A DNA stretch of 64,000 nucleotides. Origin: Intoshia linei. Taxonomy: Eukaryota; Animalia; Orthonectida. Under the pieces are notes generated by a model. It searched no databases. It was not told where the DNA came from and saw only the letters and a program-made list of their open reading frames with translations. Shown in pieces: positions 1,559 to 53,383 of this stretch (the stretch's first letter is position 1; each line of letters starts with the position of its first letter). The stretch is taken from assembly GCA_001642005.1 (NCBI GenBank), contig LWCA01000013.1, positions 23,582 to 87,581 on the forward strand. The letters run 5' to 3'. Position numbers and translations under genes: made by a program.

Positions 1559-1636
1559 ATTTTCACAAATAAAATTAATATATTATTAATTAATCAATAA
1601 ATATGACAATAAAATTATTAAAAAATATTAAAAAAC

Positions 1637-15534: not shown

Positions 15535-18500
15535 TAATAATTAAAAAGTTAAGTCAAACGCGAAACTAACCACATGTATTCGCATCCTTACAAAATTTCG
15601 ATCGACACAGTAACTCCCCGACAATTGTTCTGATACAAAACAATATATAGTAAACAATGCTATCTTCTTTCAGCTCGAAATCTCGAGTACTCTTAAAATT
15701 TCTAAAGTACTCTTACAATATTATTGTCCAGTTTTATCGGCTGAAATTTTGATCAAATGAAATATATCACAATATGTATTACACATATTGTGTACAAAAT
15801 ATTAATATACAATGTATGTCAAATTTGATGAAAATTTTGCAATACTTTTCTATTCTATTCTCATTTCAAATTAAAATTTTTAGTTTTTTATTTTTTTTAG
15901 AGTTAAATTTACCCTGCTAAAGTAAAAAATGTTCGCCCACCAGCTGCAAATTATTTATGTTATCAGCGATTAATTTGGAATATTAGGGCCCTCACAGGGT
16001 AGGCACTTATGAATGTTCTAATATGGATTTAGAATGGATTATTAAATTATAATTCCTTATTAACTGCACAGCCAGGTTACTTGTTACTGATTAAAGTTGA
16101 TAAATTCACTGAATAAATGGTTTATTCTGGTCATGGTTTAATTTAATCATTTAAATTACAAAATGAATATTTAAATTTTAAAATGGATAAAACTGTAAAA
16201 CAATAACTAATAAGCAAATATGAATTGTGATTCACAATAAATCCATAAAATCATCATCAAACAAGATAAAAGTGCATTGTTGTTATTGAAATCATTATCG
16301 ATTATCAAATTTAGCTAATTGAACCTGCTGAGCAACACATTGTACAGATTCAAACAAGCCTTTCACAACGAGAATGCGAAATTATAGCCTGGTGTGAAAA
16401 AGTGGGCGGTACAAACTATAATCTCAATTTTATGTGACACAATACAACATACTCTACTACACGACTGTAAATTTATCGAGCATTAAATATTTGCCAAAAT
16501 TTAATTCTCGTCAGCATTGTACAAAGCAATGTACACCAGCTTTACATAATTTAATTGTTCACTAATCGTGTTACACACTGTAAATTATTACTATCAATAT
16601 CCAACCATTTAAATCATTATGCTATTCCTAAAAGATGATGCATGTCAAAAAAGTCCGGAAATTATTTCTACATTACAATCAAGAATGTACACTTCAAAAT
16701 TGACATTTTATTCAATTTTTCAATATTTATACTTATTATATATTATTGTGATTCATTTTCATACATTATTATGTACATTTTAAACAAGTACACACAAGTA
16801 TTTCAAATATATTTTTTACATCAACCTAATTTACTTTATTACAGGTAATTTTTTCTGTTTTAATTATAAATATTTACATTTTTGTATTCATCTATTTGAT
16901 GAAAAATTGATACTTACACTAAATTGACCTCAACTAACCCAAGTTAACCTATATTAGCCTAAACAATTTAATTCAAGTTGTATTTTACTTATCTAAAGTG
17001 TATATAAAAAGGCATTTTGGGTGTTGGGTATTAGAGTGATAGGAGTAGACTACGCCGCGTAGTTCCATCTATAATTGTTTGTTAGAAACACGATCCAAAC
17101 ACGAATTTTTGATCGTGCCGAATCGTGTTTTCGGTCGCATTATAGAATACTGTTGAGTGTTTTATGACTATGCATTGTTGTAGGTTTTATTTATTATACA
17201 TAACTGGTTAGGATCGAATACGCAATATTTACCATTTTTAGTCATTGGAAGGTTTTTTATGGCCTTTTGAAATTTTTATGTATTAATGATTAAATCAAGG
17301 AAGAAACTACATTATTATAATTAAAGGTTCATCCATGATATATACGAAAAATTGCCCATATTTTTTAGTTTGGGGTCTCGATCATGATTAATGATTTCTA
17401 ATGTTGAAGGTATGGGTTTAAAATTTTTATTAAAAGGAACGCATCTAGCTAGGTTAAGCTTATTCTATTCGTCTATAAACATCTGATAAAAAATAATCTA
17501 GTGTCTGAAAAGCAAATTATTACATTAGTGCAGAGTTGACCATTAGAAGTCGTTAAATTTTTACAAAATAGTGGCCTCTTTTTACAAACTGAACATTAAA
17601 AAAAAATGTATTTGTCAATATCATAACTGTTCTGTATGTCAAATTTAAACGGTAAGTCTAGTCTAGAGTCTAGATCCGAAAAAAGCTGATTAAGGTCATG
17701 TAATAGGGGTTCCCACACTTTTTTTACGTCTGACCCATTATAAATTATAAAATTTGGATAAAAACGTAATAAATTCTATTCAGTGATAATATTAAAATTA
17801 AATAATTTTTCAAAAATTTTTTCACAGATCACCATTTGGGAAACAGATATAACATTATTATCACATTTAGAGCGAAATTTATTTAGGGTCTCTTTTTGAT
17901 TTCTGGCCTTGACGTGGTAGGTTGAAGTCTGAGTCAATGATTTTCATTTTATCAGGTAATTGCTTAATTTTTAAAATGTAATTTAATTTACCTAAATAAT
18001 AACCATGGATGCATTGGAGGTAATTAAGTAAATACGAAGGCGTAAAACTAAGTCTTACACTACGATTAAATCTTAAGTTTGCATTCTTATAGTGCATTCT
18101 TTTAATAGCTTTAAATAATAAAAATAACGTTAAAATTTCCACAATAATTAACACGTCAATTATAAAAAATGTCAAAAATAAAATATAAATTCAGAAATTG
18201 GGACAAATAGAAATGTAGATGAGACTTTCAAAAATATTCCTGTCGTTATCGTGTATTGGTCTCTTATATACTTTGTACATGTCACTCATTCGACCCATTT
18301 GTAGATATAATTTTCCTCACTTTTCTATTACATAAGAAAATGTATCTTTATAATTTCTACAATTTTGGATCAATTCGTATCTTTTTTATTAGATTTGGTG
18401 ATACTTAGAACCATTAAACTAAATATCTTTTAATTATAGTAAGACTTGTGCTAGGACTGGTTTTTTATCACAAATTTTTATAATTTAATATTTAAGACTC

Positions 18501-20584
18501 AAGTTAAGTTTAAATTTTTAAATTAAATTGGTAACCTATATAGAGGTCATTTTAGTAAATGTATTTATTGTAAGATATATTTATTATCTAATTAAAGAAT
18601 GTTTATTGAAGTTGACTCAATTCTACTCAGTTATCATTATGACGTCATTTATACATAAAAATGTAAAATACAGCAATGTATAATTTATTTTAGTGAAATT
18701 TTTTCTCGTTATTCGTGCAAATTAATTTTATTAGTAAAAAGATAAAATTTGTAAAATTTGTAATTTACTACACGGTTTTAAAAACTGTCAAAAAATTAGT
18801 GAAAATTGATTACATTTTTGTACTTTTTTGTTTACACAGGGCATGTAAAAATGACTATAAAATTTAAATTTCAAAGTTTTAATTTGACTACATTTACAAT
18901 TGATTTAATTTAAAAAATTATATACATGCCGTTTAGATTAATTTAAAGTGAAATGAATTTAATCCATCAAATTTGTTTAATATTGAATCTCACACCGTTA
19001 ATATTTGGATATGTGTTTGGTAATTTTGATTTCAATTTAGTTTTCAATTTAATTTAATTTAACTGTACATTTATTTTAAATTAAATTTATTCTTGTAATT
19101 TTTTCAGGGTTTCAAGGGTATTAATTATAAAATATTTACCAATCATTGGAGCAATCATAATAAAAATTGTATACTAATAGTATAATAGATTGTATAGTAC
19201 CCCATGGCTAAAATTATAATTAGTAATTAGGGCTAAAAAGTCAAAAAGTTAATTACCCATTAGAATAAATTAAATTCATTTTAAAATGTGGAGTATATGG
19301 AAATTTACACATGATTGAATTAATCGGATAATAAAAGATGGATAAAAATAACATTGAAAAATTGTTTTTTATAGACTATTGTTTCATGGCAAAGATGAAT
19401 TACCCTATTAATTGTCTGTGACACAATGGGTGTCATTTTTGTTACACATGCATTCAAAATTTCTATCGATTGACTTTAACCTTTTGACATGTTACTAAAA
19501 TTTAGCCAATTTAACTTGACGAAATGTATAATATTTTGACTGTATATTTATACTGAAATGAAAATGATTAAAAATTGTTAATATTCCATAATAAATGATA
19601 GAAATCAAGTACAGTATTGAATCAACTATAAAATCATGTTATTGTAATTTTATAAATTTTTAAGTTTATTCATCAAACGAAAAATATGACTAGCCATTTC
19701 ATGATAATGGATGGATTATGTTGGATTAGCTTTAATTCCATTCTTAAATAATTAATCTATAGTACGTTGAATGGGAGAGTATAAATGTACGTATTATTTA
19801 TTCTAACTAAATTTTTATTCATTCATACACGTATTCTTAAAATAATTAATTCACAGATTAATAATATTTACTTGTGTTTGGTGTAAACTTTAATAAAATT
19901 AAAATAAATTAATCGCGTTTAATGTGTGAAAAATAACACTAAATATAAAAACCAAATTAATTTTGGCGTTAATTTAATGGTATTCTATTGTTATAGTGTC
20001 AAATTTTATTTTCGTGATACATTTTTTTGTGTTTATGCAATTTTATTCTTAATTTGACAATTTGTATTCAATTATTGTAATAAAACTACCATTAAATATA
20101 TATATTTTATTTTTATTAATTGTAATTTTCACCTTATTCTTAATTCAATGAATAGTATTCATTAATTCACTATATTTACTAACAACTATGTTGATTATTG
20201 AAAAATGAATGCATTTATTGTTGGTACCAATTAGTCGTCTTTGTATTCATTTTTCCAAAATTTATTAATTTTATTTTTAATATTTTTAATTAGTCCATTT
20301 TACTCCATTCTATTAAATTTCCATTATTATTGAATTATTATGTTATTGTATATTTTACATTACACAATATAATTTTAATTGTTTATTTAACTGACATTAT
20401 GGACAATAAAAATTTACTCAATCGTATCTTTCTATATCACGTATATTTGAACCTTATAAATTCTATAAATTGTAAGTTATATAAATTTATTTATTGATAT
20501 TTTTTCAACGATTTCTATTTAAGTTAAATTTTAGCGGTGCCTAAAAAAAATAAATATAGAATATTTTGATTACTTAAGTATACT

Positions 20585-21360
20585 AACTTATATAATATGC
20601 TACGCAATTTTTGTTTGTGTTCCACTTTATTAAAATAACTACAACTCTTAGAATTTTTTAAAGACAACATTTCCAATACAGTTTTTTCCGGGACGTATAA
20701 TAAGATAAATTTCGACCTCCCAATTTCACATCTTACCGGTCAAAAACCCCAGTTGTCCCTCTTTCTGAAAATCAAACGAGTAGGAGAATTTAAAAAAATA
20801 TATATGCTGATACGGATTTTAAAATCATATACATTATCATAAATTTAAATTTAAAAAAATTATATTTTCAGGGCCAAAACCACAAATTACCCTTCTTTTT
20901 TTAATGAAAACAGCCCTAGAATTTCAAAAATTTACAAGTGGTACAGTTGTATCCTGTTAACACACACAAAAAATTTCAATCCGAATAAGTGACGACTTCA
21001 CGGTCAAAAAAGCATTTTAGTATTCATATATTTTTTTTTCGAAATATTTTATTAAAACAAAAAATGTGAAATAATTAACGAAAATCGAAAATTAAAAAAA
21101 AAAGATTATTCTGATACAGCTTATTCCAGTTAATATAAATTCAAAATTTGAACCCCAGAAATTTACGCATTCCCGGTGAAAAATAACCTTTAATTTATTA
21201 TCAATCAATATTTTTCAAATGTTTCGATTAAACAATCAAAAATTAAAATATTCATCCTACAATTCCAAAAAAAGCGTGAATTGACCGTATACATATTTGA
21301 AATCCAGAAATATTGGTTTCAATCTGATAAATTGATTAATTGTGTTTTTTTATCATTGCT
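20585..21360 (+). mobile_element. Helitron family copy (5' part); further copies near 4980-5560, 7090-7470, 39331-39870, 54481-55294, 57753-58250 and 60600-61340
   Basis: High similarity to 14019-14611 and 10156-11769. Confidence 0.7.
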
Positions 21361-24326
21361 ACAAAATTGATCATTTTCAAAAACTAAAGTTTTGAAAGTT
21401 TTTAATCAACTTCAATATAACTTTGTTATTATAATTTGATATTTATAATAAATTTTATTGCAATATTAGCAACATTGCTTCATCCATTCATTATGTATTA
21501 TAGAAAAAAAATGATTTTTCAATTCTCCTGATTGTCTCATATTTACATCTTTTCTATTTAACAAGCTAAACTTATTCATATTGCTCGCAAATACTAATTT
21601 TTTTTTATTTTAACAAATTATATTTGAATAAAGGGAATATAGAGCAAGACATTTACATTTTTTTTTGATTTTTAAAAAAATCTATGGCGAATGCAATTTT
21701 GGATGAAAATCACCAAAACTAAACAAAAGTTTTTTTAATCGAATAATGGATACTTTACTGGTTTTATTTTTGATTAATATATTTTGACTGGATTTTTATC
21801 TGAAATTTTAAATTACTTAAAAATCAATACAATACGATGCCGACATATTCTCTCAAATAATTTAAAATTTTGAATAATACACCAATATTAATTACTGACA
21901 TTTTGGTATCAAAATAATACCTCCTAAGTCTTTGAGTTTTTTTATAATACGTTTAATACATGTCACCGACTTCATAATGTTATGATTAAAAATTTAAAGC
22001 AGTGCTGCATGGTATTCATTTCGTTGTTTTAAATTAAGAATTGAATCATCAATTACATTATAATGTAATTATTATATTGTAATGTATTAATATTATAAAA
22101 AACCATAATGTCCTGTAGAGCCTACCATACTCGAGACCCGAAAATCAAAAATAGACCCATTAATTTTCGATATATTTAATGCTATATAGACCATAGTTAC
22201 CTAGCCCTGACTTGCGGTTATTATTTTGAAAAATATAAATTTTATAAATACTACACTCGTAAATATTATGGCAACAATTTACAAAACCGCTTAGGGAGGA
22301 GAGTTCAATTGAAGTGTTCTTTTATGTTATTTTATTTCTTACATTATGTTTTTTTAACCTTTAATTCCAGAAACTAAACGAGAATATGATAATTTTTTTA
22401 TGCGACAATTATGTGTCAAATTTTTATTTTACGTTTAATTATTTTGAATACTTTATGTTTTTAATCATGTTTATATCATATTTCATAAAAACAATAAATT
22501 GTCCAGAATGACAATTGTATTAAAATGCTTAAATCTACGATAAAATCCTATTGATATGAATCGTTGCGTGCAGCTTCTATAGTGAGGAATATACAATATT
22601 ATTCAATTAGTGTCAAATTAAGTGTCAAAATTAAATTGAGATATTTCAACTGATTAAATGTGATTAAAATACAGATTAATGAAATATAGTGGTCATGTCA
22701 TCAAATGATGTGCTTAAGCTAAACGCTGAGATGAATAACGTGTGCATGCACTTGTTAGTTTAATTTATTTTATTTTTTCAATCGTTACATTTTCTATTTA
22801 TGGCTGTGTTACAATACAAATTAAAATGAATGAATTATGTGTAATTAATTCCAAAATTTTGTATTGTTTGTTATGGATCAAAAGATATTTTTGGTGTATT
22901 TTCTTTTACCAAAGATTTAAAGTGTTTAATGTGTTTTTGAACCAAACTTTGAATACCTGTTTGAGGGTCCTTTTAATCATTATCGATCTATGTCATAGAT
23001 TCTATCATGATAATGCTATATGCCATGTCTCCAAAAATTTTTCTTATCTGACCCTTGATCTATTATTCATATTAGATAAGATGATTATACTATAGTATGG
23101 CTATATACTAATATAATTAAAAAAATTTAATTTTCAATAAGTTGAAACATAATTAATTTATGAAAAAACTGAAATAAATAAGACTTCAGTCAGTTTTATC
23201 CTCCTTTGGGAATCAATTAACTATTTTGTATCAGTTGAACTCTGTATTTTTAACATATGCTGATGTTTATATTTACATTCTTTTTTATCGCTATAACTTA
23301 TGGTTAAGCGTGATCGATTTGCTGATACAGTCTAAGTCCTGATCGATAAAAGTGTCATTTTACTTTTAGTAAAACCGGATTTTTCCTATAAGGGTTGGGT
23401 AAATTTTGATTTTTAGTAAAATTGTTAGGATTTAAGAATATTGTTAATATAAAAATAGCAAATTATAACTTAAAATCTAAAAAAACTTAATTTTTTTTGT
23501 TTCTTCAATTATGAATCATGATTAAAATTTGATGCTGATTAACATAACAAATCTGTTGTAACGTTTATGTTTGCGATTAAGTTACTTAACGGTTGAAAAT
23601 TAGTGATTTTATAATAAAAAAAGTGTAAACCACCTTTCTAGAGTGTATTATTGAACAGTGTTCAATGAATGTTCATGATGTTTTTAATGCTATACTTGTC
23701 TCATTGTTATAATTAAATTTACAATATGTTAATAAATTATCTATTCATCAATAATTCACTTCCACATGTTCTTTTTATATATTCTGTCATGGGTAAGTGG
23801 TGTGAAATGATTAAAAGTTTGCTAAACAAAGTGAATGAATTGTAAAATCTTAAAATAATGCAAGAATTCGCATTATATTTTATTATATGCTTTAAATCTT
23901 TTTCATCAATACAAAGAAATCTCATACTGAGTTTACCCTTTCCCTTTAGATTGAATGGCACATATTTTAATTTTAATTATATGAAACTATGACACCTTTT
24001 GTAGAACAATATGTTATTTGTTATTCTAATTCTAAGAAAAATATTGCATCGAATGAAATAAAAAGTGAATGGATAGTTTTTCATTTTTTTTGAAGATTTT
24101 ATGTAATGAAATTTATTTACAATTATTAATAAAGGTTTTTGAAATTATTTTTAAAAATGGACACTAAACATTTAATTAACTATCTAATAACCGTCATTAA
24201 CCTAACAATACCTCAGAGACGATAAAAATAACGGATGTAAAAAATTTTAGTCTATCCTAGGTTTATGTTTAAATTAATGCAATCTAAATTAATGTTTATA
24301 AAAGTATAATAATTAAATACTTTTAG

Positions 24327-27300
24327 ATGAAATCCTCTACGATTCATCAAAAGTGCAACCTTCTCTAAATTGGGCTACCTATAACGACCCCTTAAAACAA
24401 GATATATCAAACCTTACAAAAGAAATAAACCAAAACTCAGATTTAAAATTCCACCAAAAAAAAAGAATCTCGTCATTAAACATGGTAATTGTATTTACGT
24501 AAAATATACAACTATACAAATAATGTGACACTTTAAAAAGATGTATATAAATTGGAAATGTATAAAGTATACTGTCAATTTTGATCCGTTAAATGGTTCA
24601 ATATACACATTGCACATATTATAAATATTGAAACTTTACCGATAAATTTTAAAGTGGGTATTTATATACATGAATGACTTATTTTGGAAAATTGACTTTT
24701 TAAAATTTTCTTAAACTGCATCTGTAATGCAATATATCATTTTTTGACAAGTTTTTTATAATTACCGATTTTTGGACGGGTTAGTTAATTGTTTGATGGA
24801 GCGTAAATTAAGGAGAATGCATTGCATAAAAATCAAAAGTAGATAATGCAACTGTGTCATGAAATGGATAGTCTAATAAATGCATTTGCATACATTTTTT
24901 AGTTTAATCCAGAGTTGAATAATCTTTTTATATTTTAATTATATAATTGTAGATATTCAATTGAGAATACTATAATTTAATGTCTGATGATCATGTCGAT
25001 GCAAGCATAATTTTGGGCGTTTCTTTTTATGATTTTTTTAATTATAGTTATTGATTTTGCAATTTAAATAATTTATTGTTTTAATTTGCATTCTGTGCAA
25101 ATTGACAGAATATGTAAATTATGCAATTGGATAAATGTGACAGTTTTATCTAGATATCCGGCATCTGTTTAATTAAGATAATGTTGATATAGTCTTATTT
25201 TTAAATTAATTTTGTAAAATATAGGAAAATGTAAACTATTTTATATTGTACAAATTAAATTATAATAAAAAAATTTAGTGGAAAGAAACTAGTGAAACAG
25301 TTGGAGATTTAACTGTACGAGCATATGTAATTTGTAACATGAACGGCGAGTCTTTCAATTGGCTCAGGGTACCTTTTGTTAATGTAGATCGTAGTCAATA
25401 TGTTTACATAAATATGACATTCTCAATGAGAAAATGTGTCAATAATTCAAATTGTAAAGAATCTTTTTCTATGTATTACCAAATAAATCAAAAAGACTTG
25501 CAATTCAACCAACCCAATCATCCTTTTGAAAATTTTAAATTATTACACCTTATATCTCCAAAACTACACATAAAGTCTGACAACCCTACAAACAAACTAT
25601 TGAATTTTAAAATTTTTATAAAAAAGACTGGATTTCTTAGTTTAGCCTTCTTGGATAAAGGGGCCTGTGTGGCTATAAGGAAATTGGTTATTTTCAGAAA
25701 AGTTTGTCCAAAAACTTTTTTAAATTATGCAATGTTCCCGGAAACTTCTGTAGCTAATCAAACTCAGCATGTTTATGGACAGTGTGTCAATAATTCTATT
25801 TGGGGATTGAAAAATTATCAGTTTGATAAATTTAAATCTTTTAAACTCAAGAAAAATAAAAAAACCATTCATCACAATTACTTAAAGTTACTGCCTAAAG
25901 CCATTTGTACTAATCATGGATGGATTCAAGTTAATAATAATTGTCAATGTTTGCCTGGATTTGAACCGAAAAATAATATTTGTTCAGGTAATTTAATTTT
26001 ATAGTGTTGTAAACATTTTAAGAGTTTATGACATTCTTTCAAAAGTTGGCTCTTAATCCAGCGAACATTTAGTTGAGCGATACATCTTAGAGCGACATAA
26101 TCATCGATTTTGTTAATTAATCATAATATTTATTTTTTTACAATATTTTTGTGGTTTCTTCAAGGTTTCTTTAATGATAATGACCAAAAATGTGTAAGGT
26201 TTTTAAGCGAATATTTTTTTCTACCATTTTTGAAAAATTTTGAAGATAAATTCCCTTAAAAACCATATATAATTTTGGTCCCAAAATAAGATAATAAAAA
26301 TAAAGAAGGTAGCGTAAATTTAAATAACTAAAATTTCATGACAAAAATCAATATGATAAATAAGTAAAATTGATGATTATGTCGCTTTAAGATGGGTCAT
26401 TGTTCGTTTTTTGTATCGCTCCAACAATACATCGCGCAAACAAATATCTCTCCAAACTATGGACGTTCTTAACCTAGGGCCCTGAAATTCTGGCGAAATT
26501 GTCGGCTTTAATGGTCAGTGATAAATTTTATAATTTATTACCGGTCCGCCGTTTTCACTACCGAAAAAAGTGTGGGAACCCCTGACAGGGCTCCTCTGTA
26601 CTGTTGTACTATGAGGATATTATTTACAAACTATAAATGGTAAATAAGTCTCAATTTTCATCATATAAAAATTTCATATTATAAAGATATTTTTACCTAA
26701 CTTTAAAATGGGAATTTTTTACCAAACCTTAAAGTAGGAGTCGGCAACCTTTTGCATTTCGTGGGCCACTTTTTTATATCAAAAAATTCCACGGGCCCCG
26801 TTTTTGAAAATTTACCTATAATAAATTTCAATTTTAATTAAAGAGAAACGGTTCTAGTGTATTCAACAAAATAAATCCAGGGCGATTTGAAAATTCAGTA
26901 TTAAAATGATTATAATGAGCCTATTTTAGTAGAAAATGTTTAAAACGGTGTTTAAAAGTTGAAAAATTAATAATTTATATAGTCACTCGAAGGACCACCA
27001 AAATTATTATGTGGGTCACTGGTGCCGACCCCTGCCTTAAAGGGTGATTTTAAGATTTTTATAATTTGAAATATTTTCGTTTCCACTAGTTCATTCTAAA
27101 AAAATCTGCTCATAATAAGTAATTTTTATATTATGAAAATTGTTTAATTTAAGAATTTGATTCATCTTCCCAAAATTTAATGTAATCGTATAATTTTCTA
27201 TGTAAATGCATTTTTTTAAATTTATTAATAAATTTAGAATGCGGACGAAATTATTACAAATCTATAAAAAACCAAACAGTTTGCAAAAAATGTCCAAAAA

Positions 27301-30300
27301 ATTCAACTAGTAGACTAGGTTCAAGTTTCTGTACATGCATTTCAGGATATTTCCGCGCTAAAGACGAATCATTAGAATCGAAATGTTCTAGTAATATTTA
27401 ATTATCATACGTTTCAATTTAATATTAAATGTAAAAAATTAATTAGTAAATTAGTAAAGTAATTAGAAAATATAAAAAATTTATAGATCCGCCATCTGCT
27501 GTACAAAATCTTAATGTATTGTTTTTCGATAAATTGCCAAATAATTCAATAAACTCGGTGTATGCATCACATGAAATTGAAGATGTAAATGACATGTCGA
27601 AGGCAATGATTAAATGGGATCCACCGGTAGATAGTGGTGGTAGAAACGACATAACATATTCGGTAATTTGTTCCAACTGTGACAGTTCAATTGAATTTTT
27701 ACCCTCCATTGATATGCTTAAATCCACAAGGTATAACATTTATTTTATGTACTGCATTATTATATTGTAACATCATTTTGTTAACAACAAAGAGTACAAT
27801 GTACATAAAACTATTGAATCATTCTAAAATCTCACGAGATTAAAAGCTGCTTTAATCATTTATTAATTTACGCTAATTTTTTCGAAATCTTTACATTTTG
27901 TATTTACATAGATTATTGTATACAAAAATGATAAATAAATTAAATTAATTTATCAAACGCTTAAAAGTAGTTTTATCATACATGATTACTTCTTTAATTT
28001 ACCCTAATGTTTAAACTTGAATGATTTAATGTTTTATAAAACGCCTCAAGAAACTTTATATTTTATGTAGTGTTATCATCAAAAATTTGAAACCAAATCG
28101 TTTATATTCTCTCAAAATTGTTTCTCAAAATGGAGTATCTGATGTTAGTAATTTGGTTTCTTATGCTAAAATTGACCTCAAAACTACTTTGGAAGGTAAT
28201 TAATTTACATAAACGTAAATGTAGTAAATTTATTAATACATGTTAATATATTCTACAAATAGATAATTAATAAAATACTCTAAATTGAATTTTTGGCTCC
28301 ACTGTTCATTTTCATTTATGAATTACATATACTAATTTGCGCCTTTTTTCATTACTATGTTTTCAACAGGTAATATTTGATAATTTCTATAGCTATTATC
28401 ATTTTTTTATTGTTATCGTATTTGTGCAGACATTTTTCAAAACATTACTAAAATGACAGACTGATTCTTAATTAATCACGTTAGTCATTTTATCTGTTCA
28501 TTTCACAATAATTTCAAGATTAAATATAGCCATACCAATATAAAATGGTTCTTTTTATGTATATTTATCAATATATTAATGTACTCATTATCATAAATTA
28601 TAGCTATCAATACCATTCAAAATTTTGAAATTGAACTGTTAAAGAAAGGGTTTATAATGTTGAAATGGACCAAATCGAATAAATATGAAAAATATGAAAT
28701 TCGATGTCAAAAATTTATCAATTTCACTTATGAAAATGTCAATACATTTCAAAACGCATCCAGAAATGAAAAATTTGAAAATGTTTTAACAACAAACAAT
28801 TTTGCCAATTATACCGTTGAGCCTTACTATTATTATGCATTTGAGGTAAATTGTGTCAAATTAAATTAAATTAAATTAAAACGTTAACGTTAACACACTA
28901 AACCAGCGTTACCAAAATGTCGGTTCGTGAAAAAATTTTACCGGTCTGCGAAATAATTTTGAAAAAACTTTTTACTAATTACAACTTTTAATTTAAAAAT
29001 CGATTTTTACGTTTTTTATCAAATTTTTTTAACGTTGCTTAGTAATTTTGCTTTAATGATCCGCGATAAATGTTATAATTTATTACCGGTCCGGTTCGAT
29101 GAAAAAAATGTGCAAACCCCTCCACTAAACTTAGTGTGTTAATTTAATTTATTTAAAAAGGAATTTTTTTGAAAATGACAAAATCACCCTAAAAATTTTA
29201 TAAAACCAATATTATGTACCTTAAAAATGAACTAAATGAACATTTTTTAAAAAAATTTAATTTTTGACTAGGAGGGATGAAACCTTTTTGTGTATAACTA
29301 TTTTCTATACATTGTAATTGTAAAAATTTTAATTTTAGATTCGAGGTCTACTCAATACCAAAAACAAATGGTGGTCCAAATTTTCTGAACCAATTGTTAT
29401 TTATTGTGACTCTAAAGGTATGTATTTTCTATGTTAGAATTTATATAAACGGTAAAATACACATACAAACCACATTTAAATGCTTGGCTACAAAACACAG
29501 GTCACAACTACGAAAAGTTATTTCATATACATGTAGTTAAGTTGAGTTAATAAGTTAGAAAAAATATTCTTTTTATGAAAGAAATATCGCGTAATTCTTT
29601 ATCTTATTGACCTAACATTTTAACTTGGTATGACATTAATCGATTCAATGTCTTATCAAGGTTCAATTAGAAGGTAGTTACCCTATCAAACCTAAGTTTT
29701 TTAAATTACATTAAATTTACTTTATTATTTAGGTTACGTAAAATTCCAAGAAAGCATAATTCATGCAAATTACCACATTATAACAATATCGGCCGTCGTA
29801 TTTGTTATTTTAATTATTATTGGTGTCATTTTACTGAAATGTTTTTTTAAAAAACGTAAAAACAAAAAAGACTGTATTCAAAAATATAACGTGTCAATGG
29901 TTATGGGAGAATCTGGATCAATTATCCCTGTTGTAAGCTTAGACAAGGGATTTAACCAACAGACTGGTATGATTACACGAGAAAATTTGTCATTGAAAAA
30001 AGAAAATAAAAGCATTTACTCTTCCTTGGAAAATTATTATAATTTTAATGAATTAAATTGCGGCATTAAAACGTTTGAAAAATCAAGCGTCAATTTTATT
30101 TATCCAGATTCTTATACCTCACTTAAGGAAGCTCTTAATTCTCATTTTGTGGAACTTAATCATACGGATTACAGCATTATTTCTGTCATTCAATCAGGTA
30201 AATATTTTTGTCATTTGGTAATTATTGTAATTTAGGAATATTTGGAAATTTATGTAAAGGAAAAATAAATAAAGCCAATGGAAATTGTACTTTATATGAA

Positions 30301-33160
30301 CAACTTGTTGCAATAAAACTTTTGAGAAAAGATTATACTGACAAAGAATATTTTAATGAAGCTGTCATTATGAAGCAGTTTAATCATCCAAATATTTATT
30401 CCATCGTTGGAGTCATTTTTTCTGGTAATTATTTATCATTATTAAAATTTTTTTAATTTTGAGATGAAGGTTTTGATTTTAAAATTTAATAATGGTATAC
30501 TGCAGAGTTCAGTGACGTACGGATAGCAGATATGTTTTTAAAATTTTTTATTCTTATTATTATTAATATTATCATTTTTTTTATCATAAACATGGTACAA
30601 TGTATTTTCAAGGAATGAAGTAATTTTAAATTTATTAATTTAGTTCATCCTCGAATGTGCGTGTATGAATACATGGTGAACGGATTATTGAGTGAATTTT
30701 TGATGGTAATATTTATTTTTTAATGTAAATGTTTAGTTTAATTATTCAATTTAGAAATTTGAACATAAATTATCCGACAATGTAAAAATGAGGTTTGTGA
30801 TCAATATAACGGAAGCTTTGCTTTATTTTGAAAAAATTGGATTTTTATATAAGGTATTTCAATTATAAAGTTTTACCTACGATCCACCCGCAGGATAAGG
30901 GCAAAGCGAGTTAAACATTTTAATTTAAATATTTTTTTAATAATTTAATTACATTAATTGTTAAAAATAATGTTTGTGTAATTATGAATATATGGAAAAT
31001 GGGAGAGAATAATGTGCAATGACCAGTGGTTATGAAGCATGATTAGGCTTTTTTTATTGACCTTAAATTAAATAATTATTTAATTTACAATTATTAATAA
31101 TTTGTCTATTATTATAATTTAATTTTTGAGTTGAAAAAATTAATGTTTTCTACTATGCTACAGTGTGTATTTTTGGGAAAATGTAAATCAATCTCAAGTA
31201 AATAAGTTTCAATTTTTATAATATAAAAATTATATATTATGAACATATTTTTTATGAACTGCAGAAGGAAATTTCAGAATATATTTTTTCCAAACCTTAA
31301 AGTGGAGGGTTTTGTACGATTGTTTTAAACCAAACCTTACAGGGGAGGATTTTTACAATATTTTTTACTTAAAGCCATTTCATTGGTTTACATTTATTTT
31401 TTTTATATCAATTTTAATATAAAGACTATAGAAGTGTATACAGCGTAAGAGTACACCCTAATTTTATTCTGTATTTTTAATAAATTTTTTTTATTACATT
31501 TCATGCAACATTGGCATATTTTTTGTAAGAATCTACAAAAAACACCTTTTCAAATTTGAGTACAGATTAATTCCAATAGATACACTGGTAGAAATTTATT
31601 TATGGAACAGGGTTTCGCAAAACCGAATCTACCATACTAGAGACCCTCTTCGGTGGATAAATAGGCTGACTCGTCGGAATTATTTTAAAATGGTGGATTA
31701 ATTTTAGAGAAATTGAATTTTTTTGACTTTTAAATAATGACTAGTTACAACTGACTAACATTTGTTTTAGATGCATTTTCTCGTATTTTATTCTACATTA
31801 AAAAAAGTTGACTTAAAAATTTTTTAGGATTTACGGATTAGCAAAATTTTTTTAAATGACGAGACGGTAGGGCACTTAATTACAACTTTTGAGTAAACGG
31901 TAGAAATTGTAATTTGTTAGATTTTAATTTCAATTCTAAATTAATTTACATGATAAAATTATGATTATACATTGGTGATTTTTAATCAAAAAAATAAAAC
32001 TTAACCGAGACTTTAAAATTTATTATCTGAAAAATTTTATAAAATGTAATTTTAAATTAATAATAGTTTCAGATTAAATAAAAGTAATTTTGTGATAATA
32101 TTTTAATAAAATCGTAAATCTAACGTGTCCACTTTTTTAAATTCGATACGAACCATATTCCAGATAATTATAATTTCGACTAATTGACAAAATTTAGAAT
32201 TTAAACACAAAAAATGTATACATGAATGGATATTTGCAATGTAAAATTGGAAATTTCAAGGAAAGTAAAAATGATGGAATGATGTGGATATGCCCAGAAA
32301 CATTACTGGGTGATAAGTTCACCTACAAATCAAATGTGTGGAAACTGGGTGTATTAATATGGGATATTTGGTCTTACGGTAAACTGTCGACATTAAACAT
32401 TCCCCAAAAATCATATGAAAACGATTTCATCAAACCAGTAAACACTGAAACCAAACCGCAAATATTTTTAATTCGATCCAAACAGACTCTACTCGTAACT
32501 AGCTTAAAACCAAACCAATACTTTGGAGAACTAGAACCAGTGTATTGTCTTACAAACGAAAAAGTTGAAATATCTGAAATTTTAAAAAAATGTTGCAACA
32601 TAAACAGTAAAGACAGAATGAATTTACAATCAATACAAGCAATTTTGGAAAATACGATTTTTAAAAATTCTCATAAATTTGACATTCATAAGGATAATTA
32701 TTATTACAAGTTATCTCCAATTCTTTCAAACCTGAAAGAATCTTCATACATGAATAATTTGGATGGAATATTGGACGTATTGTCATTTTTGGGCCTCAAT
32801 TTTTACATTACCAATTTCATATCTCAAAAAATTGACAATCTGTCAAAATTTGCACGCTTGCACAATTCTATTGAAAACGTTTTCCAACTCTTACAAATTT
32901 ATGATACTGATCATCAAAATACACTTTCTCATTTAGTGTCATTCATAAGTGATTTTCGAAAAAATTACGAAATCAACAACGATATAACTAAAGAATACAA
33001 AAACTTTCAACATCCGGATACATCCTTTTTTGATAATACAAATTCAAAAACAGACACTTCGTCGAAATGTACAAATTCTACAAACTCGGAACTTTTCTAT
33101 AATGAAAATATTGACTTTCAGTTTGACAATCAAATTTCAAATCAAGTCAAAATTATATAA
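24327..33160 (+). CDS. Eph: Eph receptor (ligand-binding domain, sushi/EGF, 2 FN3, TM, kinase-like, SAM, PDZ-binding tail), probable pseudokinase; exons 24327-24484, 25279-25987, 27238-27390, 27487-27730, 28071-28195, 28604-28845, 29339-29417, 29733-30197, 30236-30424, 30644-30705, 30755-30853, 32198-33160; signal-peptide exon not located
   Basis: Motifs in order: EILYDS..LNW; WKETS...RAYVICN...NWLR; FSMRKC; CKESF; FLDKGACVAI; CQCLPGFEP; YYKS...CKKCP...CTCISGYFRA; WDPPVDSGGRNDITYSVIC; SQNGVSD; TM segment IITISAVVFVILIIIGVILL; VAIK; EAVIMKQFNHPNI; WICPE; SAM-like LSFLGLNFYITNF; C-terminus VKII. All junctions are GT-AG and in phase. Confidence 0.93.
26060..26450. mobile_element. Long-inverted-repeat (foldback-like) element; related copies near 50117-50375 and 58970-59520
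   Basis: Inverted arms ttagagcgacataatcatcgattttg ... gatgattatgtcgctttaag recur at three loci. Confidence 0.6.
26735..27034. mobile_element. hAT MITE family A with perfect 8-bp TSD
   Basis: Ends read CCTTAAAG|taggagtcggcaacc ... ggtgccgacccctg|CCTTAAAG. Confidence 0.9.
28904..29122. mobile_element. hAT MITE family B with perfect 8-bp TSD
   Basis: CACTAAAC at 28896-28903 and at 29123-29130. Confidence 0.85.
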
Positions 33161-33216
33161 CTTTTATAAAAAAATTATACAGGGTGATTGTTAATTTTGT
33201 GTATATTAAATTTTCA

Positions 33217-36200
33217 TTAAATATTGTTGAATGAATCGGTAGATTGGCTACAAGTTGAGTCTATATTGTATCGGTTTAAATTTCTTGGTTTCAATGTTCT
33301 TTGGATTAGATCAGTGGCTTCTCTTTTTAATGTATGCAACTGTCCTAATGGAGACATTCGTTTCGTTGTAATTATACTTTCTTGCTGATTTTCGTTGATG
33401 TAAAATTTTTTTGATCGTTTCTTTGAATTGCGGATTTGTATGTTTATCATCATTTTCAACATTATACCCATTATGCAACCAAATAAAAAGACAAAACATA
33501 TTACTATATAATTAAATTTGTGGGTTTCAATGCAATCTGATTTTAAAATTTCACTTTTATCCTTTTTTACACTGTTACGTTTCCAATGTTTTCCCATTTT
33601 TAATGATTTTAAATCCTAATTTTTAATTTTTTAAAATAATAAATAAAAAATACTCTTGTCAAATTATTAAAGCTTTGGATTGGTGCTAGTGTTGAGTTGA
33701 ACTTTTTCAAATTCTTTGTATTATTTTTTGATGCAATCGTTGTAGCTTAAATTTATCATTAAAAATTTAAAGAATAAGAAAATACATAAACTCAAAATAA
33801 GCTAATTAAAATCAGTTACAATTAATTGACCATTGAGCAGAAAAAAAATAAAAATATCAATCAGTTAGAGCGGATTCATAGGACTAATTGAATGGTTAAA
33901 TAAATACTAGTGATTGTGCCGGGACAAAATTTCCGAATTTTCGGATTTTTACGATTTCCCGAAAAAAATTGAGACATACCTGTATTTGATTTATGTTTGT
34001 TATTAATATGAAAATATGATTATATTATAATATTTAAAATTTACCATTTCAAAAATCCCACCACTAATAAATTTAATCAAAAATACCATTTCAAGCCCTC
34101 ATGGAAACATTGTGTTACACCGATATTTTCAAAAATACAATTTTACGAAATCTTATGAAAAAAATCCACTTCATCAAACCACAAATAAAAAATCTTATTT
34201 TCCAGCCCATAATGGAAAAATATCCTTTTTCCAATACTTTTTTTAAAAACCTCTTATTCCAACCACAAATTGCTAACGCTTAAGGGAATTATCCTCTTTT
34301 TCCAATATTATTTTGAAAAATATTATGAGTAGTTACAAACTGGAACGCTATCATCAAGATTGTTAAAATTAAAGGAAGCCCTTATGACCGTTCAACCTAC
34401 GTGCACACAAAATGAAAGAAATTTCTCTACTGCTTCTAATTTCGTTGCAAAACGTAGAACGAGTTTAAAAGACGAATCTATCAATATTATGTGTTTTGAA
34501 AAACTTTTTCAACAATCTAAAATAAATAAATTTTTTTGCTAATTAAATTTGTAAATTTCAATCTAGATTCGTGTTATGTCATTAATTAAATTTCTTTTTG
34601 TTTCTAAAATTAATTAAGGTCTCTAAAATTTTTTATTTTTCCCGGGAAATCACAATCACTAATAAATACCTGCATAATTAATGATACATGAAAATGAAAA
34701 TTACGTATGGTAACATTCTTAATTTCTTTGATAAATCTTGATTTGAAATTTGATAATTTAAATAACAAATTATTAAAATTTGACACATTATTATCAGGTA
34801 TGATTGTGTTGCATTTTGAGTTGGTTTTATTTACATTTATTGAAAAGGTTAAATTAGTTCCAATTCGTTTTTTATTTTTCTGGCTTAAATTAACTTCATA
34901 TTTCAAAATCAAATTTGGAAAAAACAAATATTCAGAATAAAGATTCTAATAATAAACTGTATGTATAATATCTAAAAATAAACTATAAACGTGAGGCTGT
35001 AGGTCCACGGGAACTGAAAATTTTCGTTCCTGAAAAAACCCGTAAATACCCATAGAGTTTAGTATAAAAACTAAACGTATGCACGCTTACAATCTCAATT
35101 GAAAGTTTTTATATAAATTATAATTATATACCTTTCTAAATTGAGAAACATGCAAATTCAAATCCAAAACACCAGTTGAGTTAATAAAAGTATAACTATA
35201 AAACATGAATTTTTTTTTACATTCAGATAATTGAATACGATTCAAAATTAGTTTCGTAATATTCTTCTGGACATTAGAACATGTCGACAAAATGTATACT
35301 TTAATCATATTGAATATTTCATCATAAATTATATATCGCATAAACTGCAATCTGAAATCATTATAGTAAATATAAAAGTAGTTATCAACAGGGCGGTATG
35401 CCAACAATGGGCTGAGTAAATCAAAAATGGTAGACTCTTGTAAACGTATAAAAATTTAAAAAAAATTGATTCTTCTATTTTTAATCCAATTAGTCAATCT
35501 CTTCTTCAGCATAACCCTGCTGAAGTAAAATTTCGTCTCACCAAGAAATTTTTTTTAACATATTAGTCTATTAATTTAGAATATAAGCCATCATATGACC
35601 TAACCCTCTACACGGCCTGGCTTTAGTACAATGTAATATTTAGATAAATACTTGACTGATGATTCATAAATTATTAAACAGGGAATATTGTTGTTTTTTT
35701 CAGAATTTAATTGACTAACTTTAAATTTATCCAAATCCAAATAACAAATAAATCTTTTACTTTTTCTACATTGATAAAATCATATAATTAGACAAATCAA
35801 AATAAATGAAAAGTAGAATACAATGTAATATAAAGTAGTATACTTTAATGATTTAGTAACTACAGTGTTTGTCAACGTGGATGGCCAGTCACCCTTTAGT
35901 GTAGCAAGATATTTTTAAATTTTATTGCAATTACTGCATCCATTAAAATATGGCATGACGTAGATAAGGATGTTATTCCCATGCTCACCAATTACCTCTC
36001 TGTTACATTGTAGTATCGCATCTTTAAGACTATACGTCTGGGGCCCGAGATTCAAATAAAATATAAAAAAATTTTTATAGGATAATTTTTAATATTTATT
36101 ACAGAGTTGCCAGATGTTGGAATTTATTCCAAAGCCCCGACGACCGCTACATTGTTATTTCAAAAATCCCACTTTTATCCCACCATTAATAAAATTTAAT

Positions 36201-39200
36201 AAAAAATACCATTTCAACCCTCGGATAAATCGACTTTTACATTTATTTTTTGAAAAACACGATTTTACCAAAACTTATGAGAAACTTTAATTTTATATTA
36301 TAAATGTTTTATATTTACTGTTTCGTTTAGGCAAAAAAATATAATTTTGAAAAATGTCCATAGCAGGGATTGGAATTAATTGGTAAAAATTATTGAAAAA
36401 TAATCAATTAATTGTTTGTTCAAAAATTATTTTTTAATTAATTCAAGATTGATAACAATATCAATCATTTTTAAAAAACTGTCATGTAGTTATAATGAAT
36501 ACTAGAATGCTGTTTGTTCGAAGTACATAAAAGTCAAGCTAGTAGGTTAAATACATCATTTTTCTGTTCATTAATTAATTTTTTCATCCAACCATTCGTC
36601 AATAAAAGGATTCAGTTTATATCTTTTCAGTTATATAAAAAAAACCAATTATTTGAAAAATTAATATTTAGCAAACAATTAATTGGTTTATACAAAATAA
36701 TTGATTGCAATCAATTATTTCTAATCCCTGGTCCGTAGTACAGACTCTGTACATTATTTTAATCGGGAACCACTGCATTACACGGTACTGACTAGTCTTT
36801 CAAATTTAAACTTTTCCTCGGCTTTACCCTTAACTAACTGTATTGTTGTGCGTGTAGCGAGAAAATTTTATGGCGTACCATATGGTGTAGGCCAATTTAT
36901 TTGGCTCTGTCGTACACAAATGACTACATTCATGATTTAGTACCAATAAAACCAAAACAAATTAAGATAAATAATTACAAAGTTTCTTGATGAATTTTAA
37001 TCAAAATTAATAAGCTGTCTTTATATTCCAAAACATTTAATATTTCAAAATTTTTAAATTGTCTAGTTTTGTATACAACAACAATTTTTTTTAATTTATT
37101 GAATTTACTCGTCTAAGTTTTGTTAAATTTATAATACGACAAATTTAAAAAATTACCAAATTAGTCATTTGTAAGAAATATTCAAGGTTCATATTTGACT
37201 AATTAAAAAATATTTAATAATATCAAATAAAATTACATTTCCAATGACGTAAATTAAAAAAATTGAATTATTTTTCGAAAATGAATAAACGTGTAAACTT
37301 TCTAAATGTAAATTTAGAATTTAGACTGGAGTATTTTTAATATATTCATGTTACCGTCAGTTTGCAATTTCAGTAAATATGAAGAAATATGGCGTAGTTA
37401 TGGTTCTCATATTGAGATTCTCAACTTAATTAATTTTTTTAAATTTAATAGAGGAGTTTATAACTATAATATAATTATAATATAACCTAGTCTGGTGCCA
37501 TGATTGAAAATCTTGATAAAATTAATTCAATCAGACGATAACATATACAACTATTTATATCTAAAATTACTTGAAACTGTTCTTCTTTGGTACAGTAAAC
37601 TGGGTTTAAAATGAGAATTATTGTCAGAAATTTCAAAGGCATACATTATATTTTTTCGGTTAAACCATCTAGTATAAATATATACACGTTTATCTTTTGA
37701 ACGTTCGATAAAAGTCCATGTGTAACTTTCATAGAATCTTTTTGTCAATATATTGACATTGCTGAAATCTTTGTCAATGATTATCAATTTTGAGGTCTAA
37801 ATAATTAAAATTAAACAATGTAAATTATAAAATGTACATACCAGCGGTAAAGCAGTGGAACTGGGCCAGATGAAATCTATTGCCTTATATAAAATTTATC
37901 AATTATAAAAGTTTTTTAAACGTGGTTAATTAAATTATACAAATCGAATTTTATAAAAATAAATTTCGTATATTCATAGATTTATGTGTAAAATTTACCA
38001 ACAAAAGATTTTGCAAGTAGGTACTAGGCACTATATCATGAAACTATTATCCATATAATTAATTTCGCGACACTTAAGGGTATTTCATGTGCCGCCTTAT
38101 GAGCCAAGGTAAACCGTTTTGAAAAGTCGGTATATTCAAAAATGTTAATATTTTAATAAATAAATATAACCTACCAATTGAGCATAGTTTAAAACGACGC
38201 ACATAGGTTTCATAGAACAAGTTCCACATAATATAATTTTATCTTGATTTGGATAATCTAATGCAAATAAAACGTCATTGTAGCAATTTTTCTAAAATTT
38301 TATTAAAATTACAATCATAAAAATGTATTCATAATATGGATTCCATATTTATTACATTTAAAATTAGAGCTTTTAAAAAGTGGGTTAAAATTAAACACAT
38401 TTAATGTATTACAATTTGCTACGATTTTTCGGTTTTTAAAGTCATTTTATGGATTCGCATTATTTTCTATTTGAGGACGATTCCAGTATCCCACCATCTT
38501 CTAGTTTAACAATTTCTTATAATTTCGTAAAAAAATTTTTTTTAATAAAATTTAAATATTAAATCAACAACATTACCATTTTTTTGCTAAAAATTGCAAA
38601 AAAAAAACAGAAATTAAGTTAATTTAGAAAATATCTCCTTTTTTTAAAAAACAGGACGAGAAAAGGATAAAAATAAAGGACTGTCTTTAAATTAATAGAC
38701 ATTTCACCACTCTAATTTCATGTAACTTTAAACTTAAAATTATATATTTTTATCATTTCAACCAAATAAATGAAACAATTGATTTGTACCATTTGATTTC
38801 CATTTCTCCATAAACAATTGCTGACATCTTCTGGAGATGAGACCCATTCAATCTCTTTTTCAGTTTTTAGTGTATCCTTATTCAATATGTTAATTTTATT
38901 TCTAAATATAACATTAATAATAATTATAATTATTATAATTGATTTTTGCAACATGTTCCAATTTTTAAAAGTTCGCGTTCGCATCGTGTTGCAGAACACT
39001 AATACATTAGTACTGATCTATGCATTGTATAAATGGGCCAATTTTAATTACTGAATCATTTCAGTAACTTTTTTGGCCTTGCTATGGACTATCTATATCT
39101 ATATATGCCTATATCTGTAGACACTAATCATGTTTATATTCAATTGCAATTGACGGGCCGGATAATAAACTTTTTAGCATTTTTTTATTATATAATTGCG

Positions 39201-43666: not shown

Positions 43667-43686
43667 TATAAATATAAATTGATTTT

Positions 43687-45237
43687 ATGAAATTGGAAAG
43701 TAAAATGAAATCTCAAAGATTAAGTTTAAAAGATTATAAAGATTTAAAAAATGTAAAAAGAAACAGTATGATGGTAATAAAAGAAAAACCAAGTAAAAAG
43801 CGATTATCATCGATTGTAACAAGATCAATGTCTATGGATAAAGCTATACCAAACAAATACAAAAAAATTGATAAAATAAAGGAAAACGAAGATAAACTAT
43901 ATGATAAACAAAATGAAAATTTAAAAAGTATAAAAAAACCAAACTTGGAACGAATAAAATCATTGCGGAACCGATCAATGATCAAGTACGACGATTCATT
44001 AAAATTCACAGTGTTGAAAAAGTCCTTAGAAAAACACAAGAGCCAAATTACGGTACTAAAAAAGCCAAAAATAGACATAAACAATGTAACAAAGAAAAAG
44101 ATTCAAAACATAAACAAAGACATCCAATACACCCCGAGAAAGTCAACAATGTGTTTTGACGGACATTTACCGTGCCGAGAAAAGGAATACAACCACATTA
44201 AAAAATTTGTATCGAGTCATTTAAAACAAAAAGTTGGCGCCTGTTTATACATTTCTGGCGTACCTGGAACAGGAAAAACAGCGACAGTTACTAAAATTAT
44301 CTCAGACATTACAAATTCCTTTAAAGCCGTAAAATATGTTCATTTAAATGGGATGGAATCTACAGGTCCAAACCAGATCTATTCTAAAATGGTACAGCAG
44401 TTAACGGGTAGGAAAATGAGTACAACCAAATCATTACCATGTCTCGTCAATCTTTTCGGGATAAATTTAATAGAAAAAACCCAAAAGAAGTACACTAGTG
44501 CTCTAATAGTTATCGACGAACTGGACATGCTTGTTGGATCACAAAAAAACTCGGCTATTTATAATATTTTCGATTGGCCGAATCAATCAAAGTCTTGTCT
44601 CGTTGTTTTAGCTATAGCTAACGCAATGGATTTACCTGAAAGATTATCTGCAAAAATATCATCTAGAATAGGACTTAACCGTTTAACATTTGAACCGTAT
44701 TATTACGATGAATTGATTAAAATTATTAAATACAAATGCACTTCCATTTTGCCCAGTATTGGTTCCAAGAATGTGGAATTTATATCTCGTAAAGTTGCTT
44801 CACTTTCTGGTGATGTTAGGAGAGCTATCGATACGTGTAACAAAATTAAATTGGACATTTCACGAGAAAAATCTCGCAAAACAAAAATTGATGAAAATTT
44901 GATTAAAAAAATTATTATGGCTACATTCTCTTCTCCTGTGCATGAGGTCATTTTGGCTAGAACTTTTTACGAAAAAATATTATTAAATTCATTTGCTACA
45001 GTCATCAACAAGACTGGTATAGATCAAATCAAAATAAAGGATCTTTATAATCATTTTTGTCAATCTTGTGTTTTTTCCGGAAATTCTTATGTTTCTCTTT
45101 ATAGTTTTTATAACATGTGTGTCGAACTCAATCAATCTAGACTCATTCTTATTAATTCTGCCAATTCTCCTTTTAATTGTCACATTCAGCTGTTGGCAAA
45201 TACAGACGATATTTTTACATGCACCAAAGAAAATTAA
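43687..45237 (+). CDS. ORC1: Origin recognition complex subunit 1 (AAA+ and winged helix; no BAH domain), single exon
   Basis: Motifs LPCREKE, YISGVPGTGKTATV (Walker A), IVIDELDML (Walker B), IYNIFDWP, IANAMDLPER, SSRIGLNRLTFEPY, RKVASLSGDVRRA. Confidence 0.95.
   Translation: MKLESKMKSQRLSLKDYKDLKNVKRNSMMVIKEKPSKKRLSSIVTRSMSMDKAIPNKYKKIDKIKENEDKLYDKQNENLKSIKKPNLERIKSLRNRSMIKYDDSLKFTVLKKSLEKHKSQITVLKKPKIDINNVTKKKIQNINKDIQYTPRKSTMCFDGHLPCREKEYNHIKKFVSSHLKQKVGACLYISGVPGTGKTATVTKIISDITNSFKAVKYVHLNGMESTGPNQIYSKMVQQLTGRKMSTTKSLPCLVNLFGINLIEKTQKKYTSALIVIDELDMLVGSQKNSAIYNIFDWPNQSKSCLVVLAIANAMDLPERLSAKISSRIGLNRLTFEPYYYDELIKIIKYKCTSILPSIGSKNVEFISRKVASLSGDVRRAIDTCNKIKLDISREKSRKTKIDENLIKKIIMATFSSPVHEVILARTFYEKILLNSFATVINKTGIDQIKIKDLYNHFCQSCVFSGNSYVSLYSFYNMCVELNQSRLILINSANSPFNCHIQLLANTDDIFTCTKEN

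Positions 45238-45274: not shown

Positions 45275-53383
<8,109 letters not shown>

Follow-up and report, generated by a model that had tools for sequence, protein, structure and literature searches.

The stretch analysed here, called the window, comprises 64,000 nucleotides (nt) of the orthonectid Intoshia linei (assembly GCA_001642005.1, contig LWCA01000013.1, positions 23,582 to 87,581 of the forward strand) and has a GC content of 26%. It contains a gene of 13 exons (23989-33160, + strand) for an Eph receptor whose kinase domain appears to have lost catalysis. A first-pass annotation, made from the letters alone, had placed a kinase-dead Eph at 30236-33160; this span covers only the last four exons, so that the Eph region described there is the 3' half of a gene whose start is at 24327 or further upstream. 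A search with the last exon (32198-33157) retrieved a single longer protein, I. linei A3Q56_00274 (OAF71953.1, 1187 amino acids (aa), a hypothetical protein), with 100% identity. Its database name is 'receptor protein-tyrosine kinase'. The 13 exons joined by coordinates give the deposited protein exactly, with no internal stops and with GT-AG borders in all 12 introns, and the deposited gene model uses the same 30853/32198 splice that the annotation had predicted. The gene is laid out as follows.

18953-19019, + strand: candidate true first exon from a relaxed scan, with an ATG, a hydrophobic 22-residue leader and a phase-1 GT donor
23726-23792, + strand: second candidate first exon from the relaxed scan, with a consensus GTAAGT donor and a weaker leader
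23989-24064, + strand: deposited first exon (aa 1-25), without a signal peptide by inspection and probably mis-predicted
24327-24484, + strand: exon 2, opening the ephrin ligand-binding domain and carrying a 30-residue insertion; a contig of run X4 joins it to 25278 (exon 3)
25279-25987, + strand: exon 3, remaining ligand-binding domain followed by the cysteine-rich (sushi) region, which has a Lys-rich insertion (Pfam Ephrin_lbd; EphA4 match)
27238-27390, + strand: exon 4, cysteine-rich module of EGF-like type (Pfam Ephrin_rec_like scores 20.9 bits, under the 23.1 cut-off); a contig of run X4 connects it with 27487
27487-27730 and 28071-28195, + strand: exons 5-6, first fibronectin type III (FN3) repeat (Pfam fn3, 36 bits)
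28604-28845 and 29339-29417, + strand: exons 7-8, second FN3 repeat (alignment, beta-strand model, Foldseek)
29733-30197, + strand: exon 9, transmembrane helix (about 29777-29836), followed by a long disordered juxtamembrane region and the start of the glycine-rich loop (G-loop) with Gln749 (30191)
30236-30424, + strand: exon 10, kinase N-lobe with Lys778 (30316) and Glu792 (30358)
30644-30705, + strand: exon 11, hinge with gatekeeper Tyr821 (30664)
30755-30853, + strand: exon 12, alphaE and start of the catalytic loop, ending in Tyr866-Lys867
30854-32197, + strand: GT-AG intron of 1344 nt, without an exon that supplies both catalytic aspartates
32198-32299, + strand: start of exon 13 with Asn868, Asn873, NFK (32252-32260) and a 16-residue activation segment ending in CPE
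32300-32660, + strand: rest of the C-lobe with Asn913, a low-confidence insertion (aa 931-979) and a conserved Arg1007
32711-32926, + strand: degenerate SAM-like helical region (aa 1039-1110), assigned by position, alignment and helical model
32990-33160, + strand: disordered C-terminal extension ending in VKII and the stop codon

The reading frame is open, as had been claimed when the locus was read as a gene and not a pseudogene. Shuffled versions of the last exon (n=2000) contain 26 stops on average and 13 at minimum, so the open frame is not due to chance. Contigs of run X4 skip two ectodomain introns exactly, and A3Q56_00274 is therefore likely transcribed and spliced. Over 29650-33350 the runs X2-X4 gave matches of 18-42 nt only and no contig of the transmembrane or kinase exons, which is evidence neither way. 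DNA contigs of run X1, possibly the source of the assembly itself, agree with the window over 29684-30831 without differences and over 32055-32957 with one difference, at 32890 and outside the motifs. A pseudogene, an assembly error or a mis-predicted gene is a rival explanation, favoured by the doubtful first exon and the possible identity of the X1 run with the assembly's source. This explanation is nevertheless very improbable given the intact frame and splice sites, the agreement of the X1 contigs but for 32890, the intron-skipping contigs over the ectodomain exons and the spread of changes across dozens of codons in five exons.

At the 5' end, a relaxed scan of 8000-24300 gave eight candidate first exons, among which 18953-19019 and 23726-23792 are more plausible, though all of them remain candidates. 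The former would be consistent with the intron-skipping contig that runs about 690 nt past 24326, a continuation with no long listed piece inside 20500-34500.

The kinase domain is recognised by Pfam as a tyrosine kinase (113 bits), and its motifs were compared with the 63 canonical rows of a 67-row alignment, from which the query and three EphA10-type rows were excluded. The losses named in the first-pass annotation are all present as read, and those in HRD, DFG and subdomain IX fall, in the alignment to Eph kinases, at positions invariant in 63 of 63 rows. The catalytic loop has Tyr866-Lys867 (30848-30853) spliced to Asn868 (32198), where all 63 rows have H-R-D; Asn886-Phe887-Lys888 (32252-32260) stands at D-F-G, likewise found in all 63; and the subdomain IX (alphaF) Asp, again in 63 of 63, is Asn913 (32333) in the SNVW context. 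In the G-loop (QSGIFG, 30191-30197/30236-30246) the first Gly is replaced by Gln749, and the gatekeeper is Tyr821 where 47 of the 63 rows have Thr. The activation segment has shrunk to 16 residues without Tyr, compared with 28-31 residues in the seven Ephs compared (7/7). The beta3 (VAIK) Lys778 (30316) and the alphaC Glu792 (30358) are retained, as the annotation had stated. With both catalytic aspartates changed to Asn and an activation segment of about half length, the reading as an Eph pseudokinase is supported, and the domain is very probably catalytically dead.

A survey of 203 proteins included 125 with a ligand-binding domain match, 96 of which have both motif columns. Both aspartates are kept in 90 of these 96, the other six being this protein, four vertebrate EphA10-type proteins and one broken gene model. 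Vertebrates dominate this sample, whose members were ordered by similarity to the query, and it is thus no census of dead Ephs among invertebrates.

The kinase fold is still maintained in the modelled receptor, with Lys778, Glu792, Asn873, Phe887, Trp897, Glu901, Trp915 and Arg1007 kept. The structure model has a predicted local distance difference test (pLDDT) score of about 86-97 over most of the kinase core, with an Eph alignment as input that biases it towards Eph. It superimposes on the EphA7 kinase with Z 30.8 and a root mean square deviation of 2.0 over 261 aligned residues, and its top 37 structural matches are all Eph, as may be favoured by the same input. By sequence, the closest solved kinase domains are those of EphA3, EphA7, EphA5 and EphA4 (E 1e-29), and an Atlas search with aa 700-1187 led to generic tyrosine-kinase clusters. 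Of the beta3 Lys and the HRD and DFG aspartates, two of three are lost, as in a pseudokinase, and the fold is retained in the predicted model.

Catalysis could in principle be restored by an alternative exon, by A-to-I RNA editing or by an atypical reaction. A six-frame scan found no nearby kinase exon with HRD or DFG, and a repeat search found no exon duplicate in the 1344-nt intron. This intron has 12 other phase-0 acceptors, the best at 31828. The reading that begins there (31828-31893, + strand) starts with Asp-Leu and, scored on a catalytic-loop profile of 11 columns, is among the two best of 2022 acceptor sites, with 0.016 such scores expected by chance in this intron; it could be the remnant of a copied exon or a chance occurrence. 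As an alternative exon it was rejected: without the catalytic-loop Asn and DFG, and with a stop after 22 codons, it would give no active enzyme. In favour of editing, 10 of the 43 lost positions differ from the consensus by A/G only, among them the HRD Arg, the DFG Gly and the two catalytic aspartates. The A/G class is however not enriched over a T/C control (10/47 versus 5/35 opportunities, p=0.57; 17/72 versus 7/58 at the 70% threshold, p=0.11), and because the remaining 33 losses and a deletion of 12-15 residues in the activation segment are not editable, editing would not restore activity. An active kinase by any of these routes is thus hardly credible.

The loss of conserved positions is kinase-specific. 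At positions conserved in at least 90% of rows none of 26 is changed in the ectodomain, compared with 43 of 87 in the juxtamembrane-kinase part (Fisher p=5e-7); at 70% conservation the counts are 11 of 75 and 80 of 139. The C-lobe keeps 25 of 59 conserved positions and the N-lobe 17 of 24, where no other row retains less than 85% of the C-lobe set. On one fixed 31-Eph topology the terminal branch measures 4.42 in the kinase and 1.44 in the ectodomain, giving a kinase/ectodomain ratio of 3.07 compared with 0-1.13 in the other 30 Ephs. The Pol III subunit encoded in the same window keeps its NADFDGD catalytic motif, so fast evolution alone is no explanation for the loss. Conserved ectodomain, decayed kinase and intact polymerase motif together indicate that the kinase has been released from catalytic constraint and the ectodomain has not.

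The same figures fit the main rival explanation, that only the ectodomain and its membrane anchor matter, for adhesion or as a ligand for ephrin reverse signalling, and that the intracellular part is a decaying vestige. The kinase branch is about three times that of the ectodomain, 34 of the 59 conserved C-lobe positions are lost and 15 of the 43 changes are G-to-A or C-to-T, the type expected from drift in a genome with 26% GC. A vestige would not be expected to keep about 550 cytoplasmic codons and four introns open and in frame after about 4.4 changes per site, and the kept residues are the structural core with the beta3 Lys and the alphaC Glu, not a random subset. We consider this explanation rather unlikely.

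The extracellular part is that of an Eph. The ligand-binding domain scores 81.1 bits on Pfam Ephrin_lbd (PF01404, cut-off 27) and keeps all five of its highly conserved columns. In the cysteine-rich (sushi and EGF-like) region 15 of 15 such columns are kept, although its Pfam scores alone are below cut-off, and together with the first FN3 repeat it aligns to EphA4 (i-Evalue 4e-18). The second FN3 repeat has no Pfam match, also when exon 7 is searched alone; a Foldseek match over whole Eph ectodomains (E 1e-41), the alignment and the beta-strand model agree on it. The best solved-structure matches of A3Q56_00274 are Eph ectodomains and Eph kinases, and a hydrophobic transmembrane helix spans aa 611-630. 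Lineage-specific insertions are found in the ligand-binding domain (about 30 aa, 24327-24484) and the cysteine-rich region (Lys-rich, about 28 aa, 25750-25880), both present on an intron-skipping contig, and further ones in the first FN3 repeat (27500-27600) and the kinase C-lobe (32390-32530).

The ectodomain was placed in a quick tree of 31 rows and 409 columns, without an EphB6 row. It falls in a seven-row protostome group (bivalve, bee, four nematodes) with a Shimodaira-Hasegawa-like approximate likelihood ratio (SH-aLRT) of 96 and away from EphA10. The inactivating substitutions also differ, being HRR or HKM and GF in EphA10 rows compared with YKN and NFK here. According to the available part of PMC6993872, VAIK, HRD and DFG are present in all phyla and kinase-dead Ephs trace to jawed vertebrates (gnathostomes). 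Since the substitutions differ and EphA10 is of gnathostome origin, the kinase was likely lost independently of vertebrate EphA10, which favours the invertebrate origin first proposed. Some results limit this reading: the ectodomain branch is long with an atypical composition, and in an approximately unbiased (AU) test a forced clade with two EphA10 rows was not rejected (p=0.084). A kinase-only quick tree was uninformative, as it could not place the sequence (branch 4.96, joined to another long branch).

Whether the receptor stands alone in Intoshia bears on how it could work. Word-based protein searches found no second Intoshia Eph, the 64-kb window contains none and none of 2346 candidates in a search for shorter proteins is one. 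Nor did a full HMMER scan show a second Intoshia Eph among the 149 other matches listed, down to 86.5 bits, a range in which Hydra, nematode and tunicate Ephs are listed, those of Hydra and nematodes at 118-232 bits. The FYMINK fraction is 0.36-0.43 in the window's Intoshia proteins and reaches at least 0.36 in one of the 149 listed matches (Hydra). This result is a moderate argument against a further annotated Eph of full length, but split or unannotated genes would escape it; names were checked for only 20 of the 149. Several HMMER matches (P0055, P0058, P0081, P0098, P0135, P0144 and P0201, mostly unnamed) carry 3-10 tyrosine-kinase domains in tandem, which are mostly degenerate; of the ten in P0055 (ENA contigs), nine lack a catalytic residue.

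According to the available text of PMC6543705, orthonectids have ephrins and ephrin receptors, which are not counted there, and no Eph count for Intoshia was found in the supplements of PMC5620054, PMC6543705 and PMC8662651. A table in the part of PMC3135232 at hand gives one Eph each for Schistosoma mansoni and Caenorhabditis elegans. It is tentatively proposed, with the balance slightly against it, that the pseudokinase is the only Eph of Intoshia, which would keep Eph and ephrin without Eph catalysis, the ancestral single protostome Eph having been converted during parasitic simplification. Alternatively, the receptor could be the dead partner of a second, active Eph that phosphorylates its JX2 Tyr, as EphB4 does for EphB6. 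Known kinase-dead Ephs do coexist with active ones, as do the altered invertebrate isoforms mentioned in the accessible part of PMC6993872, and the JX2 Tyr723 is kept. Such a partner is improbable considering the word-based searches, the 149 other listed HMMER matches and the single Ephs of S. mansoni and C. elegans (PMC3135232, same table).

The mechanism that we put forward, which as a whole has about an even chance of being correct, is that the full-length dead Eph is an ephrin-binding contact receptor that signals by clustering and scaffolding and not by phosphorylation. Its conserved ectodomain would engage an ephrin displayed by an adjacent cell, and this contact would hold or sort cells and could send a reverse signal through the ephrin. 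On its own side the folded pseudokinase would be a platform for clustering or docking. Tyr723 might be phosphorylated by another tyrosine kinase, and one of the cytoplasmic Src or Abl type is likelier than an Eph partner because no such partner was found. For the same reason the co-receptor role in the sense of EphB6 is the least supported of the three roles that the first-pass annotation had suggested, the others being scaffold and adhesion receptor. For EphB6 and EphA10 the available part of PMC8454701 describes ATP binding at about 95 uM, and for EphB6 also binding of the phosphorylated JX2 to the SH2 domains of Abl, Src and Vav3. By analogy with EphB6, EphA10 and ULK4, metal-free ATP binding may occur here too, at best with an even chance since Lys778, Glu792 and the hinge are kept but Gln replaces the first G-loop Gly and Tyr occupies the gatekeeper position. 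In C. elegans the kinase-dead vab-1(e2) is slightly weaker than the null (PMC12659383, available part).

The cytoplasmic docking features count against this mechanism. The juxtamembrane motif is FIYPDSY, as first read, with the JX1 Tyr replaced by Phe717 (30095) and the JX2 Tyr723 (30113) and the Pro kept, and the residues after JX2 are T-S-L instead of E-D-P. No Pfam SAM match is found in A3Q56_00274, and on an Eph SAM profile the region scores 4.2 bits, a value exceeded by 8 of 1000 shuffles. A model built from an Eph alignment predicts five helices at aa 1039-1098 with a pLDDT of 70-89 and aligns through EphA2 kinase-SAM chains; a single-sequence fold of the region is unreliable (pLDDT 53). 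Class II PDZ motifs have hydrophobic residues at positions 0 and -2. Both are hydrophobic in 58 of 81 Ephs with a ligand-binding and a SAM domain, and the tail VKII has Lys at -2, which makes it by its letters a non-canonical tail and not a class II motif. The annotation had called the ectodomain, transmembrane helix, SAM and PDZ tail intact; this stands for the first two, while the SAM domain and the tail appear degraded. Inspection of the deposited N-terminus likewise revealed no signal peptide. These points, together with the kinase-only tree, weigh against the proposed receptor. The features on which a scaffold would dock are eroded, and this erosion fits a slow decay of the intracellular part equally well. 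Three further tyrosines upstream of JX1 (Tyr691, 697 and 698, 30017-30040) lie in patterns that resemble immunoreceptor tyrosine-based inhibitory motifs and Grb2-type sites, likely by chance in an Asn-rich protein.

Kinase-dead Ephs are already known as a kind, and the Intoshia gene would be a protostome case, likely of independent origin, in which the gene itself is dead and not merely an isoform. No description of A3Q56_00274 as dead was found in the literature, though an invertebrate motif alignment in the supplement of PMC6993872 may bear on novelty. In its available part, that paper mentions unspecified invertebrate isoforms with altered kinase activity, and PMC6485061, in the part at hand, speculates on catalytically null Eph-like forms in non-bilaterians, some without a kinase domain. 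The known dead Ephs rely on active relatives. If the Intoshia receptor is the sole Eph, it offers a natural experiment on Eph-ephrin functions without Eph catalysis, and does so in an animal whose body has a few hundred cells and whose nervous system is reduced. The gene also shows that a receptor may be listed as present in signalling-gene inventories of reduced parasites although it has lost its forward enzymatic output.

The other features of the window are the following.

1631-4543, - strand: condensin CAP-D2-like gene, a housekeeping neighbour
33217-38955, - strand: convergent multi-exon gene with a leader exon near 38950, a transmembrane helix and tail at 33217-33615 and a stop 57 nt from the Eph stop
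43678-45234, + strand: Cdc6/ORC1-type ATPase, a housekeeping neighbour
50738-53407, - strand: largest subunit of an RNA polymerase, reading as Pol III, a housekeeping neighbour
6366-6737 (+ strand), 49444-49809 (- strand), 20500-21430, 26100-27040 and 33600-34500: transposon remnants (hAT dimerisation domain, DDE_3 endonuclease) and high-copy repeats of very high contig depth

The convergent gene at 33217-38955 may encode a divergent transmembrane semaphorin, judging from Cys and Trp motifs in several of its exons. One exon matches Semaphorin-1A weakly on the expected motif (E=1.8, third of three rows); three other exons gave no semaphorin match, and there is no Pfam Sema and no usable Atlas match. 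A semaphorin would matter here because orthonectids lack semaphorins according to PMC6543705, in its available part.

The closest known systems are the vertebrate EphA10 and EphB6, which like the Intoshia receptor have a full Eph ectodomain, a transmembrane helix and a kinase fold without the aspartates of the catalytic loop and DFG (PMC8454701, available part). EphB6 also retains the JX2 Tyr. The route to inactivity is different: fish EphA10 rows have HRR or HKM, GF and an activation segment of 29-30 residues, and EphB6 has RLG (same part of PMC8454701), compared with YKN, NFK and 16 residues in Intoshia. The beta3 Lys is retained in Intoshia and replaced in human EphB6 and EphA10, whereas the conserved C-lobe positions are kept to 86-88% at lowest in EphA10 rows and to 42% in Intoshia. 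EphA10 and EphB6 sit among 12 active human paralogues, the Intoshia Eph has no partner found in the searches above, and its ectodomain groups with protostomes.

Two other comparisons are more distant. PTK7, ROR and RYK are receptor subfamilies without an active member (PMC13259870, available part), and the Intoshia Eph would be the same if it is the sole Eph. They are Wnt co-receptors with other ectodomains, however, while the Intoshia receptor has an ephrin-binding-type ectodomain and an Eph-type kinase fold. ULK4, with NFC for DFG, likewise has Asn in place of the DFG Asp and binds ATP in the absence of Mg (10.1101/2020.06.18.159293, available part), but it belongs to an unrelated cytoplasmic Ser/Thr-kinase family and lacks the beta3 Lys, so it serves as an analogy only.

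The single Ephs of other protostomes, such as C. elegans VAB-1 and those of insects and molluscs, have the ectodomain lineage and the domain order in common with the Intoshia Eph. VAB-1 has a kinase-independent component (PMC12659383, available part). The five nematode and insect rows and the mollusc row all keep HRD and DFG, whereas in the Intoshia Eph kinase independence would be the sole mode of action.

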